Source of the DNA: Ginglymostoma cirratum
Taxonomy: Eukaryota
Assembly (NCBI GenBank): GCA_024137785.1
Contig: JAHRHZ010000016.1
Span: 37,381,404 to 37,445,403 of the forward strand
Length of the DNA: 64,000 nt
Direction: 5' to 3'
Shown: one piece after another, positions 1-63,400 of the stretch
Numbering within the stretch: the stretch's first letter is position 1
Layout of the letters: each line of letters begins with the position of its first letter
The notes under the pieces: generated by a model
The model's input: the letters and a program-made list of their open reading frames with translations, nothing else
Told to the model about the DNA's origin: nothing
The model's database searches: none
Translations under genes and position numbers: made by a program

Positions 1-39
1 ATGACAGAAGGTAAAAGGGAAATTACATAAATTTAATAT

Positions 40-16625: not shown

Positions 16626-17418
16626 TGCTTGTAAAACATGTTACTGCAGCATATTACAGAAATTACGTTGAAAAATGTGCAACACTCTTGGTTGGATTAT
16701 TGCTTTAGGTATGAAAATAATTTGTACATTTGGAAGATTCTATGCATTATTCATTGCACTGCAACCATAATATTCAATTTGATTCAAAATACCCCATAAC
16801 TATTATGCAACTCAAATAGTTAATTTATGGACCTCATTTGGTTTTACTCAGTTATTTTTACAGCATTATCTTGTGTAAGAAATGTTTGGAAACTTACAAA
16901 ATAATAATGTTTGTGATTGCGTCAGCAACTCTGCAAAGGTCAAAGGTAGTTACCTAAAGTTTCGATCATTGAGTTGCTACTTCCAGTTGTTACATAAATC
17001 TGACTTTATTATATTCCACATGATGGTTACTCTGAGTTGTCAATTCCATTTTCACCTTGCATTTTTTTGCAACATAGGAATCAAAATATTTAAATAAGTT
17101 GTTTGTCTTAATTGGCATTGTTGACAGTAAGCCTAGTGACATTGATTGTAACAACCAGCTATCCACCAATTAAAGCTTTATAATTACTTTACAGTGGAAT
17201 CCCCATTACTGTACTTTCCAAATTTTGTAGCACAATGGCCTGAGCTACATTGTCTCATCACAGAATCTATACTTTTCTTCATGTCTCATCTGTTTTTTGC
17301 TAAACAAATGCACATACTATTTGAGATAAAAGGTACTGCAGATGCTGGAGGATCCGAGATAACAAGCATGGGGCTGGATGAACACAGGATGTCAAGCAGC
17401 ATCATAGGAGCAGGAAAA

Positions 17419-17452
17419 CTTGACGTTTCGGGCCTAAACCCTTCATCAGAAA
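17419..17452 (-). ncRNA. Minimal hammerhead ribozyme motif (family A)
   Basis: UUU-CUGAUGA-A-GGGUUUAGGCCC-GAAA-CG-UC-AAG. Confidence 0.75.
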
Positions 17453-17464
17453 AGGGTTTAGGCC

Positions 17465-17864
17465 NNNNNNNNNNNNNNNNNNNNNNNNNNNNNNNNNNNN
17501 NNNNNNNNNNNNNNNNNNNNNNNNNNNNNNNNNNNNNNNNNNNNNNNNNNNNNNNNNNNNNNNNNNNNNNNNNNNNNNNNNNNNNNNNNNNNNNNNNNNN
17601 NNNNNNNNNNNNNNNNNNNNNNNNNNNNNNNNNNNNNNNNNNNNNNNNNNNNNNNNNNNNNNNNNNNNNNNNNNNNNNNNNNNNNNNNNNNNNNNNNNNN
17701 NNNNNNNNNNNNNNNNNNNNNNNNNNNNNNNNNNNNNNNNNNNNNNNNNNNNNNNNNNNNNNNNNNNNNNNNNNNNNNNNNNNNNNNNNNNNNNNNNNNN
17801 NNNNNNNNNNNNNNNNNNNNNNNNNNNNNNNNNNNNNNNNNNNNNNNNNNNNNNNNNNNNNNNN
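17465..17864. other. Assembly gap (400 N), probably spurious
   Basis: The same 22-mer lies on both sides of the gap. Confidence 0.9.
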
Positions 17865-18049
17865 TCATCAGAAAAGGGTTTAGGCCCGAAACGTCAAGTT
17901 TTCCTGCTCCTATGATGCTGCTTGACATCCTGTGTTCATCCAGCCCCATGCTTGTTATTGCACATACTATTCAGTTATTGTTTGATTTTACTGGTTTACT
18001 TCCCACGCCTACATTTTTGTTGTACCAGAATTGTGGCACTCTTGATTGT

Positions 18050-22149: not shown

Positions 22150-22283
22150 TTTTTCTGAAGAAGGGTCTAGGCTCGGAACGTCAGCTTTCCTACTCCTCTG
22201 ATGCTGCTTGGCCTGCTGTGTTCATCCAGCTCTACACCTTGTTATCTCAGATTCTCCAGCACCTGCAGTTCCTACTATCTCTC
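22150..22283 (+). mobile_element. Single-arm family-A PLE terminal repeat, hammerhead core mutated
   Basis: TTCTGAAGAAGGGTCTAGGCTCGGAACGTCAGC..CACCTGCAGTTCCTACTATCTC. Confidence 0.85.
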
Positions 22284-36272: not shown

Positions 36273-36459
36273 GAGATAGTAAGAACTGCTGATGCCGGAG
36301 TCAGAGATGACAGTGTGGAGCTGGAGGAACACAACAGGCCAGGCAGAATCAGAGGAACAGGAGGCTTGATGTTTCAGCTCAGGAAGGGTCCTGCCCTGAA
36401 ACATCAACTCTCCTGCTCCTCTGATGCTGCCTGGCCTGCTGTGTTCCGCCAGCTCCACA
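36273..36459. mobile_element. Older palindromic PLE-derived insertion with 15-bp TSD
   Basis: Arms TGTGGAGCTGG..GATGTTTCAG and CTGAAACATC..CCAGCTCCACA; ATGAAGTAACACTGA at 36258-36272 and 36460-36474. Confidence 0.88.
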
Positions 36460-38527: not shown

Positions 38528-38541
38528 TCAATTTCCTTCCT

Positions 38542-39193
38542 AGATAACAAGCATGGGGCTGGATGAACACAGCAGGTCAAGCAGCATCATAGGAGCAGGA
38601 AAACTTGACGTTTCGGGCCTAAACCCTTCATCAGATTTCTGATGAAGANNNNNNNNNNNNNNNNNNNNNNNNNNNNNNNNNNNNNNNNNNNNNNNNNNNN
38701 NNNNNNNNNNNNNNNNNNNNNNNNNNNNNNNNNNNNNNNNNNNNNNNNNNNNNNNNNNNNNNNNNNNNNNNNNNNNNNNNNNNNNNNNNNNNNNNNNNNN
38801 NNNNNNNNNNNNNNNNNNNNNNNNNNNNNNNNNNNNNNNNNNNNNNNNNNNNNNNNNNNNNNNNNNNNNNNNNNNNNNNNNNNNNNNNNNNNNNNNNNNN
38901 NNNNNNNNNNNNNNNNNNNNNNNNNNNNNNNNNNNNNNNNNNNNNNNNNNNNNNNNNNNNNNNNNNNNNNNNNNNNNNNNNNNNNNNNNNNNNNNNNNNN
39001 NNNNNNNNNNNNNNNNNNNNNNNNNNNNNNNNNNNNNNNNNNNNNNNNTCTTCATCAGAAATCTGATGAAGGGTTTAGGCCCGAAACGTCAAGTTTTCCT
39101 GCTCCTATGATGCTGCTTGACCTGCTGTGTTCATCCAGCCCCATGCTTGTTATCTCGGATTCTCCAGCATCTGCAGTACCTTTTATCTCTGAT
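38542..39193. mobile_element. Palindromic family-A PLE-derived insertion with 14-bp TSD and two divergent hammerhead motifs, spanning a gap
   Basis: TCAATTTCCTTCCT at 38528-38541 and 39194-39207; intact cores at ~38604-38637 (-) and 39063-39093 (+). Confidence 0.9.
38649..39048. other. Assembly gap (400 N) at palindrome centre
   Basis: Run of N; flanks are reverse complements of each other. Confidence 0.95.
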
Positions 39194-52509: not shown

Positions 52510-54428
52510 TGAGATACTTTTTATTCATTGAGAGATTATCAATGCTCTACACAAATATCAGTCACATTGTTTCAATTGAAGGATGTGAATTAGGAAGCTT
52601 TCCAAATAAATCTGAGTCGAGCAGGCTGCTCTGTCCTTTTTGTGTGTTCAAGCCTCTTGCTGAATCCCTCAGAAAGGATATGGTCATCAGAGAAGTGACT
52701 ATTCAAGGTATTGGAGGCACCTGTTGCCATCTTCTGCTCAGATCCACTATTGGTTTGTAGACTGATAGGATGCAGATGCCAATTTGAAAGGACATTGGGG
52801 GCCATGCTAATCGAGAGAAGAGCAAAACCAAGTACTCTGACTGATCCTTTGTCTCCTTTGTCAACAGGTTAGTTTACCTGAAAGTGCTTTAATAGACGTT
52901 AGATATGATTAGAGTAGCTGTGACATCTAAGAATCGAGTAGCAGTGATTAACCGAAAGCTGGCAGGAGGGATCATTGCTCCTTCTCCATTGTGTAGAAGA
53001 GCCTGGTCATCAAGTGTAAAGCACTCTGTGTTGTTAGACGTGGTGCAGGCAAATCCTGCAATCCTCATTCTTGCATTGTCACAATCATTTGAGTCCCCTT
53101 TGGCTTTATCTGGAAGTTGAAAACAGATTGTGTTTACAGAGATATCAAATACAAATCTCTAAGCGAAGGTGAATAAAACACACCTAAGATTTTCTGATGA
53201 AGGGTCTAGGCCCAAAACGTCAGCTTTCCTGCTCCTTTGCTGCTTGACCTGCTGTGTTCATCCAGCTCTTCACCTTGTTATCTCACCTAGTGTAACCTTC
53301 ATCCTGATGTCCAGTGTACTCTCCCAGTATGTAAATATCAAATGTAACTGCGTGCTAAGGTTCTTCTTGTCCCTGGTGTTGGGAGGATGGATCTGGTCAC
53401 ATTGCTGCAGGACACTCCAAGTAGTTGGATAGTGCTACACTACTGCCTCTTATGGAGAGGTTAATGCAGGAAAATACATTGACCACAAGTCTATCTCACA
53501 GTGATCGGCATGGAACATCCTTGAAGCCCTGTCAGTAAATGAGACTGTAGATCCTGCCAAATAGTTCCTTGAACTGACTGTCCAAGTCATCAGGCAGAAT
53601 GCCAAATCCCTAGAAATTACAAATGGGCACCATAGCTCAGCTTGGCTAGCGATGAGAAAGGTCCTTACTAGCAAATACACTCTGAACAACCAGATTCTTA
53701 ACTCCTCTACACATGGCTGTTGTGATGGGGAAGAGACTTGTTCACCTTCTCGTGAAAAATGTTTTTGTAAGGAAGGTCTTGGAAGAGATACAACAGTTTC
53801 TGTCATGGTTCATTCCACACAGTTTTGTGGGGCAGAGCTTCATGCACTGCAAAAAAATTCCAGGGTCGCGCATGGAGAAAAGTACAAACTGCACATAGTG
53901 GGCCATCATCTCAATGAAAGATGCTCTTATATCTGTCCTAGACCTGCTGGTCTTATAGTGAAAGGTATTGCCCTCGACTGATTGTTACAGACTATCACAT
54001 TTCAAGTTGCAAGACTGCATTGCTGAGGGATTAATTTGGGGTAACTATTGCAGAGGCACAATCGGGAGAAGTCACTTCCTAAAATCTTTCAGCCATCGTA
54101 CACCAGTAGGCTGGAAACTTCAGAGCCCCTTGGGCAGTGTGCCTTACAAAGCATGTATGCTCTGAATCAAGAGTATTGAAAATATATTGAGACACCTGAG
54201 AACATAACATGATGTATATTTATTAGAAGTGTTGTAATTTTCAATGTGGAACGTTTTGCTCTCAAGTTGTACACCTGGCATGGAATGCATTTTGTAAATA
54301 ATGAATCTATGACAGTTATATTGAATGTAACATTCTGTATGGGGACAAGTTGAATGTTGTCGCAAATTTTGTAAGATTCAAATAATTCTTCAGACATATT
54401 TGATGAATAAAGTGTATTTTGAGGAAAA
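52510..54428 (+). mobile_element. L1/Tx1-clade LINE ORF2 remnant with 3' end
   Basis: LYTNISHIVSIEG.E..SFP.KS..R...F.PLAESLRKD..IREVTI.G.GG; QNA.S.EITN.H..SAWL.MR; zinc-knuckle GC.GEET.VHLL; ends TGAATAAAGTGTATTTT. Confidence 0.85.
53187..53283 (+). mobile_element. Single-arm family-A PLE repeat inserted in Tx1, possible 6-bp TSD
   Basis: TTTTCTGATGAAGGGTCTAGGCCCAAAACGTCAGC..; CACCTA at 53181-53186 and 53284-53289. Confidence 0.85.
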
Positions 54429-56279: not shown

Positions 56280-56410
56280 AGAGATAATAGGAACTGCAGA
56301 TGCTGGAGAATCTGAGATAACAAGATGTGGAGCTGGATGAACACAGCAGGCCGAGCAGCATCATAGGAGGAGGAAAGCTTGATGTTTCGAGCCTAGACCC
56401 TTCATCAGAT
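56280..56410 (-). mobile_element. Single-arm family-A PLE terminal repeat with hammerhead motif
   Basis: Minus strand AU-CUGAUGA-AGGGUCUAGGCUC-GAAA-CA-UC-AAG. Confidence 0.88.
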
Positions 56411-58402: not shown

Positions 58403-59168
58403 TCTTTTTCTATAAGTCTCTTTCTACTACTCTTTTGTGCTAGTTCAAAAACAAATTGGACGAGACGTAGTCTTCACTGACCAAATAAGCCAATTTCCCA
58501 TAGAAAATCAGTAGAAAATTTTGTTAATTGTGTTCGTTTGAAGACTTGGAAAGGGTTCTGTGACTGAAAATATTTTAATGCAAAGACACTAGTGAGTATG
58601 TTTTAAAGTTTTAAATTTTTTTAAAAGTTTATTAAAAAATTGGCTATTGAATTCCACTATAGCTTATAAATAGTTTAATGTATTTAACAATAATGGTTTA
58701 TGAGCAGGTGAAGAATTTGTACTGTAATTTAGAGTTGCTTAATTTGTGTAGTAAACATGTTTTCAACAGTATGCATTGAATAATAAATAAATCTTCAATT
58801 CTATTAGAATCAATTAGACCGCAGGACAGACATGTTCCTTTGAAAATGAAGGACAGGAGTAGCAGGATAAAGGAACCTTGGATGACAAGGGAAATTATTA
58901 GCTTAGTCAAAAACAAACATACCTAAGATCTCAGCAACTAAAAACAGACAAAGTCCTTGAAGAATATAGAGGAAGTAGGAAGGAGCTCGAATGGGGAGTG
59001 AGGAGTGCTAAAAGGGGCTATGAAATGTCCTTGGCCAGCAGGGTCAAGGAGAAACCCCAAGGCATATATGAGAAGAAAGAGGGTGGTTGGGGAAAGAGTA
59101 GTCCAGCTCAAGGACAAAGGAAGGATGTTATGTGTAGAGCCAGAGTAAATGGGTGAGATCCTTGATGA

Positions 59169-59344
59169 CCAGGCGTGGGGCTGGATGAACACAGCAGGAC
59201 AAGCAGCATCATAGGAGCAGGAAAACTTGACATTTCAGGCCTAGACCCTTTCTGATGAAGGGTCTAGGCCCGAAACGTCAAGTTTTCCTGCTTCTATGAT
59301 GCTGCTTGGCCTGCTGTGTTCATCCAGCCCCACGCCTTGTTATC
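59169..59344. mobile_element. Fully assembled palindromic family-A PLE-derived insertion (176 bp) with 15-bp TSD
   Basis: ~80-bp inverted arms; TGAGATCCTTGATGA at 59154-59168 and 59345-59359. Confidence 0.93.
59249..59282 (+). ncRNA. Minimal hammerhead ribozyme motif (family A)
   Basis: UUU-CUGAUGA-A-GGGUCUAGGCCC-GAAA-CG-UC-AAG; predicted cut after C59279. Confidence 0.75.
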
Positions 59345-60104
59345 TGAGATCCTTGATGAGTACTTTACATTGACATTCACCAAAGAAAGGGCTATCAAGG
59401 ATATTGAAGTGAGGGAACTGTGTGTGAATACTCTCAGGCAGGTCAGCTTAAAGAAGGAGTAAGTATTGGATATCTTGAAATACATTAAGGTAGATAAGTC
59501 TCCAGGGTCAGATGGGCTCTACCCCATGACATTGTGGGAGACAAGGGAGGAAATAGCTAGTGCCTTAACAGATGTCTTTGCATCCTCTTTGGTCTCAGGT
59601 CAGGTTCCAGAGGACTGGAGAATGGCCAATATTGTTCCTTTGTTTAAGCCAGGAAACAGATAATCCAGGTAATTACAGGCCGGTGAGCCTGAATTCTGTA
59701 GTGGGAAAACTGTTGGAGAAGATAATGAGAGACAGGATTTATTCACATTTGAAAGTGAATTGGCTTGTTAGTGATAGGCAGCATGAGTTTGTGTGGGGAA
59801 GGTCATGTCTCATGAATTTGATAAGAGTTTTTTTGAGGAGATGACAAGAATGATTGATGAGGGGAGGGCAGTGAATATTGTCTACATGGACTTTGGTAAG
59901 GTATTTGATAAGGTCCCTTATGGTAGGCTGGTATAGAAGGTAGAATCTCATGGGGTCTGGGGTGAGCTGATAGATACAAAACTGGCTCCATCATAGAAGA
60001 CAGACAGTAATAGTAGAAGGGTGCTTTTCAGAATGGAGATCAGTAACTAGTGGTGCTCCACAGGGATCAGTGCTGGGACCTTTGTTGTTTATATATAAAT
60101 AACT

Positions 60105-60428
60105 GTATATTCCCGACAGAGGGAAAGCAAGCTATTCAGCCCACTGAGTCCACATTAACCCTCTGTAGAGCACCCTGCACAGACCGAGCCCACTGCCCTA
60201 TCCCTGTAACCCTGCATTTCCCGTGGCTAATCCCCCACCTATCCTGCACAACTATGGACAGTTTAGCATGGCCAATCTAAACTGCACTTCTTTGGACTGT
60301 GGGAGGACACCCACGCAGAGGGAGAATGTGCAAACTCCCCACAGACAGTCGCCTGAGGGTGGTATCAAACCTGGGTCCCTGGTGCTATGAGGCAGCAGCA
60401 CTAACCACTGAGCCACTGTGCTGCTTCC
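60105..60428 (-). mobile_element. Near full-length HE1-like V-SINE inserted in CR1
   Basis: Minus strand GCAGCACAGTGGCTCAGTGGTTAGTGCTGCTGCCTCA (A-box), CCAGGTTTGATACC (B-box), V-domain. Confidence 0.88.
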
Positions 60429-63400
60429 AATCTGGAAGAAAATGTGAATGGTCTGCTTAGTAAGTTTGCAGATCACACCAAAATTGATGGAGTTACAGAT
60501 AGGGAGGATTGTCAAAGGAACACAATGTGATATAGTTCGGTTGCAGAATTAGGCACAGAAATGGCAGATGGAGTTTAATCTGAATAAATGTGAGGTGATA
60601 CATTTTGGAAGATCAAATTCTGGTGCAAATTATACAATAAATGGCAGAACCCTTCGGAGTATTGACATGCAGAAGCCTCTAGGCACACAGGTCCAAGATA
60701 CCTGAAAGTGCCAATACAGATGGATAAAGTGATCTAGAAGGCATACAGTTGGCTTGCCTTCATCAGCTGGGGCATCAAATGCAAAAGTTTGCAAGGTATG
60801 TTACATCTGTACAAAACATTAGTTTAGCCACATATGGAATATCACATTCAGTTCTGGTTGCCACACTAAGAGAAAGATGTGGATGCTTTGGAGAGGTGCA
60901 GAGAAGAACTACCAGGATGTTGCAGCTTCTGGAGGGTTTTAGTTATGAGAAGAGGTTGGATAAACTCAGATTATTTTCACTGGAAAGACAGAGGCTGAGG
61001 GTCGAACAGATAGAGGTCTACAAAATTATGGGAGGCAGTGGTGGGGTGGATAGTCAGAGGCTTTTTCCCACGGTAAAAAAGTCAACTACGTGAGGACACA
61101 GATTCATGGTGAAAGGGGGAATGTTTAAGGGAGAAGTGTGGGGAGAATATTTCACACAGCGGGTAGTGTGTGCTTGGAATGGACTGACGGTGAAGTTGGT
61201 GGAAGTGGGCATATTAGCAACATTTAAGTACATTTTGATCGACACATGAATAGGAAGCGAACAGGGGGATAGAAACCATGCATAGACAATAAGTAATGGG
61301 ACTAAATAAGGATTAGAATCGGTGCAAACATAGTGGGCTAAAAGGCCCGTTCCTGTGTTATACTGATTTGTATTTTATTGTATCTATATATCAAACTTTA
61401 CATTATGTTTCAATAAATATTTTTGAAACTAAATATATCTTTTTTAAAAACATACTTTGAAACACTACCCAACTGAACTGATTTACCACAACTGTTGTAT
61501 TCAACAAATACAAATAAGTCTGAGTGGAAACTTGAGAAAATAAATCCACTGTTCAAAGCAGGCACAATTTTAGATGCAATTTGTGGCCAAAATGGAAAAA
61601 AAAATGTCGGCTTAGCTGACAAACTAGAATTCAGGCATCAAAATTAATCACAGAATTTCTGACTACTCCTATAACCCTGTGAACAGTACAGTACAGTGCA
61701 CAATGCAAAAATGAACACCAGCTGCCAGAACCATTGATATTATAAATGGAAGTCTACCTTTTAATGTAGAACGGCTAGTGGAACAAGACAAGTTATTCAT
61801 TCACCATGCTGGTAGAATACAATATTAGTGAGAACAGAACGCACAACTAATAAGGTCCAATGGAGGAAATTATTAGGTTTCTGAGGCATTTGAAATAAGC
61901 ATTTAGGGAGCTGTGCATTATTTCAAACTTTCAAAGTGAACTTATTTCGAAAGTATATGTCTAATGAAACTCCAAAGACACAGGAGGTCCACAAAGTTTC
62001 TGATCCCTTTTTAATGAGAGAAAAAGAATGATTAGTTCCATTCTATTAGTTCGCATAGCTTTGTCTTTTATTAGAAACAGTCCCTCAACTTGAAAAAGAA
62101 ATAAGAAGGAAAAATCCATTTTAACCACATCAGAAAAGATTGTTGATTTTAACTGCAAGATTCTAACACATAAAACTACAATCATACCTATGAACTCTAA
62201 AACAAATACAAAATTTTTATTTATTTAATTGACCTGAAGAAAGAGTTTTAGTCCCCACCGGTTCTGGAAGATGATGTGGGCATACATTATAAATAATGTT
62301 TTTAACTGGCTTACTGGTTGCCCAGCTCCAAACTACGGACCATTTCTCTGGTGGAGTAGGAACGTGAGTGTCAAGATAGAGTTACAGAAACATTCTGACC
62401 TAGTTTATCTTCCCATTACCTGTTTTTCATAAATAAATTTTAATAATATGGCATACTTTGCCAAATTTTATGACCATTGTTTAACTCCAACTAACAGCTT
62501 AGGTTATCACACTTGCGCTCAATCTGCCAATCTGTAGGCATTGAAAGTTGGGGCCTAAAATACCACCCCTGCAATTATTGTTCCAAGATGTCATAGTGTT
62601 TGAAAAACCGGAAAGATCTTGGTTTTATTACTTAAACCGTGGTCCTATCTACTTAGGCGTAGGCATGTTTTCCTTACGTTGTCAGCCTGGGTAAAACAGT
62701 GAAGAGGCACGGTTGCAGCAGAGAAAATCACACAGTTACTTTCCACCTTCATAAATATGTGTGAAATCCTCAGTGGAGGAGCTTCAAGTTTAGCTTTCAT
62801 TGTCTAGGCTCATTCTGAATAGTTGGAGGGAATTGAAACCTGCAGGATGATGCCCAAGGAGCAATTGGTGCCTTCAGGATAAAGGAAAATAAAAATAATA
62901 AATTTTAAAAAAGGGAAAAGAATAAGTAAATATTCTTACTGACATATTTTCATCATCAAAATGTAGATGTCAATTTTTCAGCCTAACAGGAAGGTGCTAT
63001 GTATTCAATATTTAACCAGCACTCTGATATAGATTTCAGCCCACACTACAGGAATAGCCAGACAAATGAACAGTTTATCTATGATGCTATGACGACATTG
63101 AAATAAGAAAATACAAGCATAAGGCATGCAAAGAAGCCTCATGAATAGGAATGAAAATGAAATATCAGCAATGTAACAGCTAACACAGAATTTAGTTGAG
63201 CACTTTTACTTGGCCTCGATAAAAGCATCATACCTCACCCTTAGCCAACAGTTAATATCCCGGTTTCCAAAAGTGGACATAAAATTGCATACTTAAGATT
63301 TGTCCTCTTGTGTGTTTTTTGGCAGTGCATATTAGAAAACAAAGTTTATGAGAAATTAACACTGGGTGTAACTATAGAGATTGCTTCACACAGAAAGATA

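Follow-up and report, generated by a model that had tools for sequence, protein, structure and literature searches.

The 64-kb window of Ginglymostoma cirratum DNA analysed here contains a 176-bp insert (59169-59344) lying between exact 15-nt direct repeats (59154-59168 and 59345-59359). The insert is built around an inverted repeat (94 nt, 90% complementary, 7-nt spacer), and its predicted fold is a hairpin of -167.5 kcal/mol (z -23), a stability equalled by 0 of 200 shuffled sequences. Its two arms agree at 77 of 82 aligned bases, and two of the five differences are at CpG. Positions in the terminus from which both arms derive are numbered from the C of CUGAUGA (position 1), which lies at 59252. 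The features of the locus are as follows:

58830-60090 (bounds approximate), plus strand: host, an old decayed LINE ORF split by the insertion
59154-59168, plus strand: left copy of the 15-bp target-site duplication (TSD); its minus strand agrees with 8 of the 11 bases of parent positions 89-99, a possible priming microhomology
59169-59250, minus strand: left arm, terminus positions 7-88, tail-less and without the start of the hammerhead core
59249-59250, no strand: TT common to both arms at the inversion junction, a 2-nt microhomology read from the sequence
59249-59344, plus strand: right arm, terminus positions -2 to 93, starting at the 5'-end hotspot and ending at the tail-less 3' site
59249-59282, plus strand: minimal type-I hammerhead motif (motif features as in the relevant part of PMC4209133), predicted to be sequestered in the hairpin; predicted cut after 59279
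59345-59359, plus strand: right copy of the TSD, which agrees with 6 of the 9 bases of parent positions 94-102

The interrupted host ORF gives an RVT_1 match (E 7e-07) and is that of a LINE; its putative subfamily, CR1, is the label given by an earlier reading, made from the sequence only. Forty matches to the right flank were found in the 4.36-Gb genome, the closest paralogs being 79-84% identical, and 12 of them were fetched, one being the locus itself. The 15-mer is present once in all of the other 11, which are paralogous LINE copies, and the left flank is collinear in 10 of the 11; since it is single in these copies, the 15-mer is a true target-site duplication. Unsplit target sites were thus recovered, as paralogous LINE copies and not as an orthologous empty allele. 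The description of a non-coding hairpin insert, with inverted arms and an exact 15-bp TSD, was accurate. The 176-bp hairpin is a real insertion and an ordinary member of a known insertion type, and this single insertion is probably inert. Contigs from four DNA runs spanned no junction among the matches listed. Further downstream (60100-60430), what we take to be a SINE-like repeat of ~320 bp also interrupts the host LINE copy.

The core of the right arm (59252-59279) reads CUGAUGA-A-helix II (GGGU/GCCC, loop CUAG)-GAAA-CG-UC, with a helix I of 3 bp and a helix II of 4 bp. It displays the features listed for minimal type-I hammerheads in the part of Cervera and de la Pena 2014 (PMC4209133) that describes them, namely the core boxes, an extra nucleotide after A9, a G10.1-C11.1 pair and palindromic positions 15.2-16.2. 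The left arm begins at core position 7 and lacks CUGAUG, so that the core is complete in the right arm only, as had been noted from the sequence. Helix II is conserved in related families, but its loop differs there. The minus strand of the insert encodes no complete hammerhead core, and an Rfam search returned no hammerhead family match, only sub-threshold miRNA matches of a generic hairpin type. The core is enclosed in an 82-bp stem, and forcing the ribozyme fold costs +40.5 kcal/mol in the hairpin versus +7.5-8.5 kcal/mol in a lone arm or in the parent terminus. On this modelling, the hairpin is predicted to trap its ribozyme in an inactive state, the motif at 59249-59282 is likely a passenger, and a transcript through the hairpin would form double-stranded RNA rather than an active ribozyme; the earlier term 'ribozyme-bearing' is not supported in a functional sense. 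In the sections of the literature that deal with cleavage, single minimal type-I motifs were not cleaved in vitro (PMC4209133) and the anole hammerhead motif needed protein (PMC11167929).

Both arms correspond to the terminal sequence of a 3.5-kb RT/GIY-YIG Penelope-like element (PLE) that is abundant in the genome. The arm has 17 BLAST matches within the 64-kb window, and exact 20-mers of the core of one subfamily occur 36,266 times genome-wide; 17,158 of these cores keep the upstream 8 bases of the body, mutation explaining part of the loss in the others. In longer copies, the sequence upstream of the terminus contains RT motifs, a linker rich in cysteines and a GIY-YIG domain. A decayed full unit of ~3.5 kb (L250:1555-5200; G000:C2) comprises a core, remnants of an RT and GIY-YIG ORF, and a second core. 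Its two pLTR hammerhead cores, at 1555 and 5077, are 3,522 nt apart, the pLTR being thus at both ends; therefore, one and the same stretch forms both the end of the 3' pLTR and the start of the pre-ORF region. In this unit, an RT domain (RVT_1, E 4e-05, under the curated cut-off) is followed by a GIY-YIG domain (E 2.2e-05, over the curated cut-off), and GIY-YIG was also detected in two other loci (L003; L013). A linker of the C-x4-C-x2-C-x-H type precedes GIY-YIG in the parent ORF; by the Neptune criterion, taken from part of PMC8557442 (a Zn-finger-like linker between RT and EN, together with placement on an RT tree), this CxxC linker would point to a Neptune-type parent. A PDB sequence search with the parent RT found nothing relevant. 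Four presumed-RNA contig sets cover the 5' region of the parent, contigs being of a nature that cannot show starts or strand. The decayed full unit also has an Ala/Thr/Pro-rich low-complexity stretch ahead of its RT. At three loci (L074; L081; L025), copies are nested within further copies, either of their own Penelope-like family or of a related one.

The ends of copies were collected by position in 364 kb (the window plus 300 kb of other blocks), one all-N block of 100 kb being excluded from every count. At the 3' side, copies end at ~+93 (22/69 matches) or at ~+129 with a 35-nt tail (32/69 matches). At the 5' side, 24 of the 60 readable copies begin at -6..0, 12 extend further upstream and three begin near the predicted hammerhead cut (27-30). 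The pile-up of 5' ends lies 2-5 nt ahead of CUGAUGA, ~30 nt upstream of the hammerhead cut site. Six of the 30 copies that read past the tail toward the ORF also begin at -2/-1, and the 5' hotspot is therefore independent of the 3' end. We infer from these positions that the hotspot would be a physical RNA 5' end, most simply a transcription start in the pLTR. The sequence around it presumably fits the initiator consensus.

The first 7 nt of the element are repeated at the start of 240 copies genome-wide (control 0). Among the 29 such copies viewed (L264-L293), 20 start with A at -3 and three carry the repeat twice. A cDNA ending at -3 could re-pair its last two bases at core positions 4-5 and copy to the end again, and a telomerase-like realignment at the RNA 5' end is a possible origin of the repeat. 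A cap-derived G at the 5' start was considered and rejected: G precedes the start at 53 of 100 listed sites (letters counted by eye) versus a background of 24-25%, and this evidence was dropped because most of the G's in 40 fetched sites are partner-arm or local-repeat bases. Minor clusters of 5' ends occur at +34/35 and +46/47 (blocks from C16 and C4), in addition to the three copies at +27..30, and some of these minor starts may be copies of cleaved RNA. Solo copies of 95-130 nt share the 5' hotspot, both in the window (22152-22282; 53191-53284; 56280-56409) and elsewhere (L010; L015; L029). These copies are SINE-like in look, and some are flanked by duplications of 14-15 bp and have an inverted tail of a few bases. 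They are likely one-armed outcomes of the reaction that yields the hairpins.

Genome-wide, head-to-head junctions at the hammerhead are numerous: a pattern with a 3-16-nt spacer gave 1,798/1,788 matches (control 2/0), and a second pattern, in which both core starts are kept, gave 5,822 matches (control 0), some of them double-counted across N runs. Junction matches include 579 loop-less palindromes (control 0), where the two ends, both at -3, share an AT; this class has few verifiable copies and its count includes double counts, 11 of the 12 fetched loop-less loci being at N runs and L256 being the gap-free example. In the 364 kb taken by position, 32 of the 69 arm matches form 16 head-to-head pairs, with arms ranging from tiny to several hundred bases. 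In the same 364 kb, 10 of the 12 N runs adjoin an arm of the element. At one locus (L057), the arm sequence continues in register on the far side of its N run. The assembly appears to be broken by such hairpins, and their counts are therefore minimum values that include some double counts. Three further head-to-head pairs are present in the window (17323-17958; 38538-39190; 36315-36458), two of which have their arms separated by an N run, while one comes from an older related family.

Eighty junctions, drawn from the first 52 places of the position listing and from the 30 best matches by similarity, were examined, and 32 hairpins with an N run in an arm were dropped, leaving 48 gap-free hairpins. 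A TSD of 11-17 bp (median 14.5) flanks 42 of the 48. Insert lengths range from 146 to 229 bp, 18 of the 42 measured lengths falling at 214-219 bp; short arms end anywhere from +22 to +99; and 34 junction types were found among 51 position-listed junctions, the type at 59249-59250 being seen three times. Junctions, lengths and TSDs are variable, and therefore each hairpin likely forms anew at its insertion instead of being copied as a unit, and the label 'stand-alone mobile element' is not supported. The hairpins measured have neither the fixed termini nor the constant short TSD expected of a MITE, and, with the parent found, the earlier attribution to retrotransposition by a Penelope-like RT/GIY-YIG protein, rather than to a DNA transposon, is upheld. 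The hairpins are the 'inverted truncated copy plus tail' insertion published for this class, at its minimum size.

The two arms are unequal in a regular manner. Exactly one arm is tailed in 42 of the 48 gap-free hairpins (50% expected for independent arms, p 4.7e-8), with 18/23 in the position-listed subset and 24/25 in the similarity subset. Four hairpins, including the insertion at 59169-59344, are tail-less on both arms, and two score as two-tailed, one of these being an alignment artefact. In 22 of 39 informative hairpins, the core start is retained on the arm without a tail. The TSD continues the element sequence over a mean of 2.1 nt at the long arm (40/42 scored) and 1.0 nt at the short arm (32/42), versus ~0.33 by chance, a measure that is somewhat inflated, since bases common to both are counted with the duplication. 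The arms of a hairpin are also related in sequence: they are alike at position 45 in 37 of 38 cases versus 23.6 expected (13/13 versus 6.5 in the position-listed subset), their concordance in that subset is above chance at positions 33, 45 and 80 and barely so at 32, 58 and 78, and they share seven rare variants. Such sharing fits an origin of both arms from one RNA or from one source locus, either of which would predict it equally. Gene conversion between arms was considered and is not needed, the arms differing by 4.5% (non-CpG) versus 2.3% for the duplications, a value biased low.

Taken together, we consider it fairly probable that the hairpin belongs to the smallest class of Penelope-like head-to-head insertions, made by priming at two nicks and joining of the cDNA ends. 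In brief, (i) a dimeric protein would prime at both nicks of a staggered target cut, usually with one RT start site each, (ii) the 3' sites at ~+93 and ~+129 would be the start sites of reverse transcription, as found in vitro for the anole element, (iii) both cDNAs would run off the RNA 5' end after 95-130 nt, and (iv) the cDNA ends would anneal via 0-4 nt of microhomology and then be joined. Two cDNAs from two nicks and two start sites could explain all hairpin classes. At 59169-59344, the likeness of the target to the RNA around +88/+93 (8/11 and 6/9 bases) likely led both primers to start at that place, and may explain the two tail-less arms. The product of such an insertion is likely dead on arrival. 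A precedent is provided in sections of PMC11167929, according to which the Penelope-like protein of the anole, a predicted dimer, cuts and extends both strands, its RT starts at two internal sites bounding the tail, and hammerhead cleavage is dispensable for insertion; this in vitro precedent concerns a different clade and species.

The insertion at 59169-59344, itself one of the few hairpins (4/48) with no tail, has a feature that speaks against priming at two nicks, namely a 7-nt loop closed by TT/AA, as expected if the 3' end of a single antisense strand folded over onto that strand and self-primed the second arm, an endonuclease later trimming either tail. This locus alone fits such a fold-back, which the sequence-only reading had proposed and which is close to Arkhipova et al. 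2013 (PMC3846280), where, in the part concerned, junction palindromes are read as self-priming; likewise, a portion of PMC8557442 attributes the tail to endonuclease resolution. The subfamily bases and the seven rare variants shared by the arms would also follow from self-priming, but would arise just as readily from one RNA or one source locus. In a snap-back, the loop-keeping arm serves as the template and must hold all of the other arm, yet it is the tail-less one in 22/39 hairpins; unless a trimming step is added, the supposed copy would be longer than its template, which fold-back cannot give. Nor can it yield loop-less junctions or junctions with both 5' ends. As a general mechanism, simple fold-back is thus contradicted by these hairpins and junctions; followed by trimming of either tail, it is a live rival, though a less likely one than priming at two nicks.

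The other explanations are weaker. A master hairpin of MITE or SINE type, multiplying as a whole after transcription or excision, would account for thousands of similar hairpins, for the 18/42 lengths at 214-219 bp and for the 39 other loci that match the junction region at >=93%, but not for 34 junction types among 51, for short-arm ends spread from +22 to +99, for lengths of 146-229 bp or for a tail that can be on either arm; moreover, duplications of 11-17 bp are no fixed transposase footprint, and the hairpins grade into solo copies as well as into pairs whose inverted arms are hundreds of bases long. This explanation is largely refuted, and we hold it to be very unlikely. That hammerhead cleavage of RNA makes the hairpins in a retrozyme-like manner, with the ribozyme as the working part, could draw on the intact minimal core with its published features, on the 3/60 copies that begin at 27-30, near the predicted cut, and on the proposal, in part of bioRxiv 10.64898/2026.07.22.740005, that retrozymes are non-autonomous PLE derivatives. 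The 5' hotspot, however, lies ~30 nt upstream of the cut site (24/60 versus 3/60), retrozymes are head-to-tail tandems and not inverted pairs in the sections of the preprint that describe them, and the energetic cost of the active fold and the in vitro behaviour of such motifs, given above, point in the same direction, which makes cleavage extremely improbable as the source of the hairpins. Finally, the chance of an assembly artefact at a palindrome, which the 10/12 N runs adjoining an arm might suggest, is close to negligible: the sequence at 59169-59344 is free of N, its arms differ at five sites, its TSD is exact and its paralogs have an unsplit target, and 42/48 gap-free hairpins have their own duplication.

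A broader reading of the two-nick model, which we advance tentatively as something short of probable, is that the genome holds a thousands-deep fossil record of a dimeric RT with a fixed division of start sites, producing strong-stop cDNAs from the 5' end of the mRNA, sometimes with a telomerase-like re-addition of 7 nt. If true, it would answer how inverted pLTRs and one-sided tails arise, and would link a telomerase-related RT to repeat addition in vivo. Neither mini-hairpins in sharks nor a two-primer model for this class was found in the literature searched, Repbase and Dfam being outside its scope, which is not proof of absence; one cartilaginous-fish data set mentioned in part of bioRxiv 10.64898/2026.07.22.740005 may bear on novelty. 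The hairpin population separates the self-priming and two-primer models of an unsolved step of Penelope-like transposition, favours two-primer insertion from the RNA 5' end and makes this step testable, the model predicting the RNA start of the element to within a few bases. The same population may seed many long double-stranded RNA structures.

Among known systems, MITEs end in invariant terminal inverted repeats and are flanked by a short TSD of constant length. The shark hairpins are similarly short, non-coding, palindromic and of high copy number, but have no fixed termini or constant short TSD, and their parent is a retroelement. In L1 twin priming, a second nick primes a second cDNA, joining proceeds by microhomology and the inversion lies inside the duplication. 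There, what is inverted comes from another piece of the RNA, located upstream, whereas the shark arms copy the same stretch.

The closest systems are endonuclease-containing (EN+) PLEs, whose insertion units, as presented in parts of PMC3846280 and PMC8557442 (Craig et al. 2021), consist of an inverted 5'-truncated copy, a pLTR and a 30-40-bp tail at one end. They resemble the shark insertions in the head-to-head inverted copy, the one-ended tail, the TSD, the pLTR hammerhead and the order of RT then GIY-YIG; in contrast, the shark hairpins have no body, and both of their arms break off at a set position next to the hammerhead. TSDs are 8-10 bp in the rotifer EN+ examples given there and 11-17 bp in the shark hairpins, which number thousands of copies. 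The anole element PAc (Poseidon, Anolis carolinensis; Frangieh et al. 2024, PMC11167929, in the sections on its insertion) similarly has two 3' end sites ~35 nt apart that bound the tail, and a hammerhead near the ORF start. In vitro, both target strands are cut and extended by its protein, in line with the two-primer model for the shark hairpins. The ATG of PAc is at helix II, whereas the first long-frame ATG of the shark parent is ~160 nt after the core. The shark parent has a CxxC linker that may point to the Neptune type. Inverted products are not described in those sections for PAc. Lastly, the non-LTR retrozymes of bioRxiv 10.64898/2026.07.22.740005 are, like the shark hairpins, short, non-coding, PLE-derived and provided with a type-I hammerhead, but in the part of that preprint that describes them they are head-to-tail tandems with a complete hammerhead per unit, whereas the shark hairpin is an inverted pair with one sequestered core.
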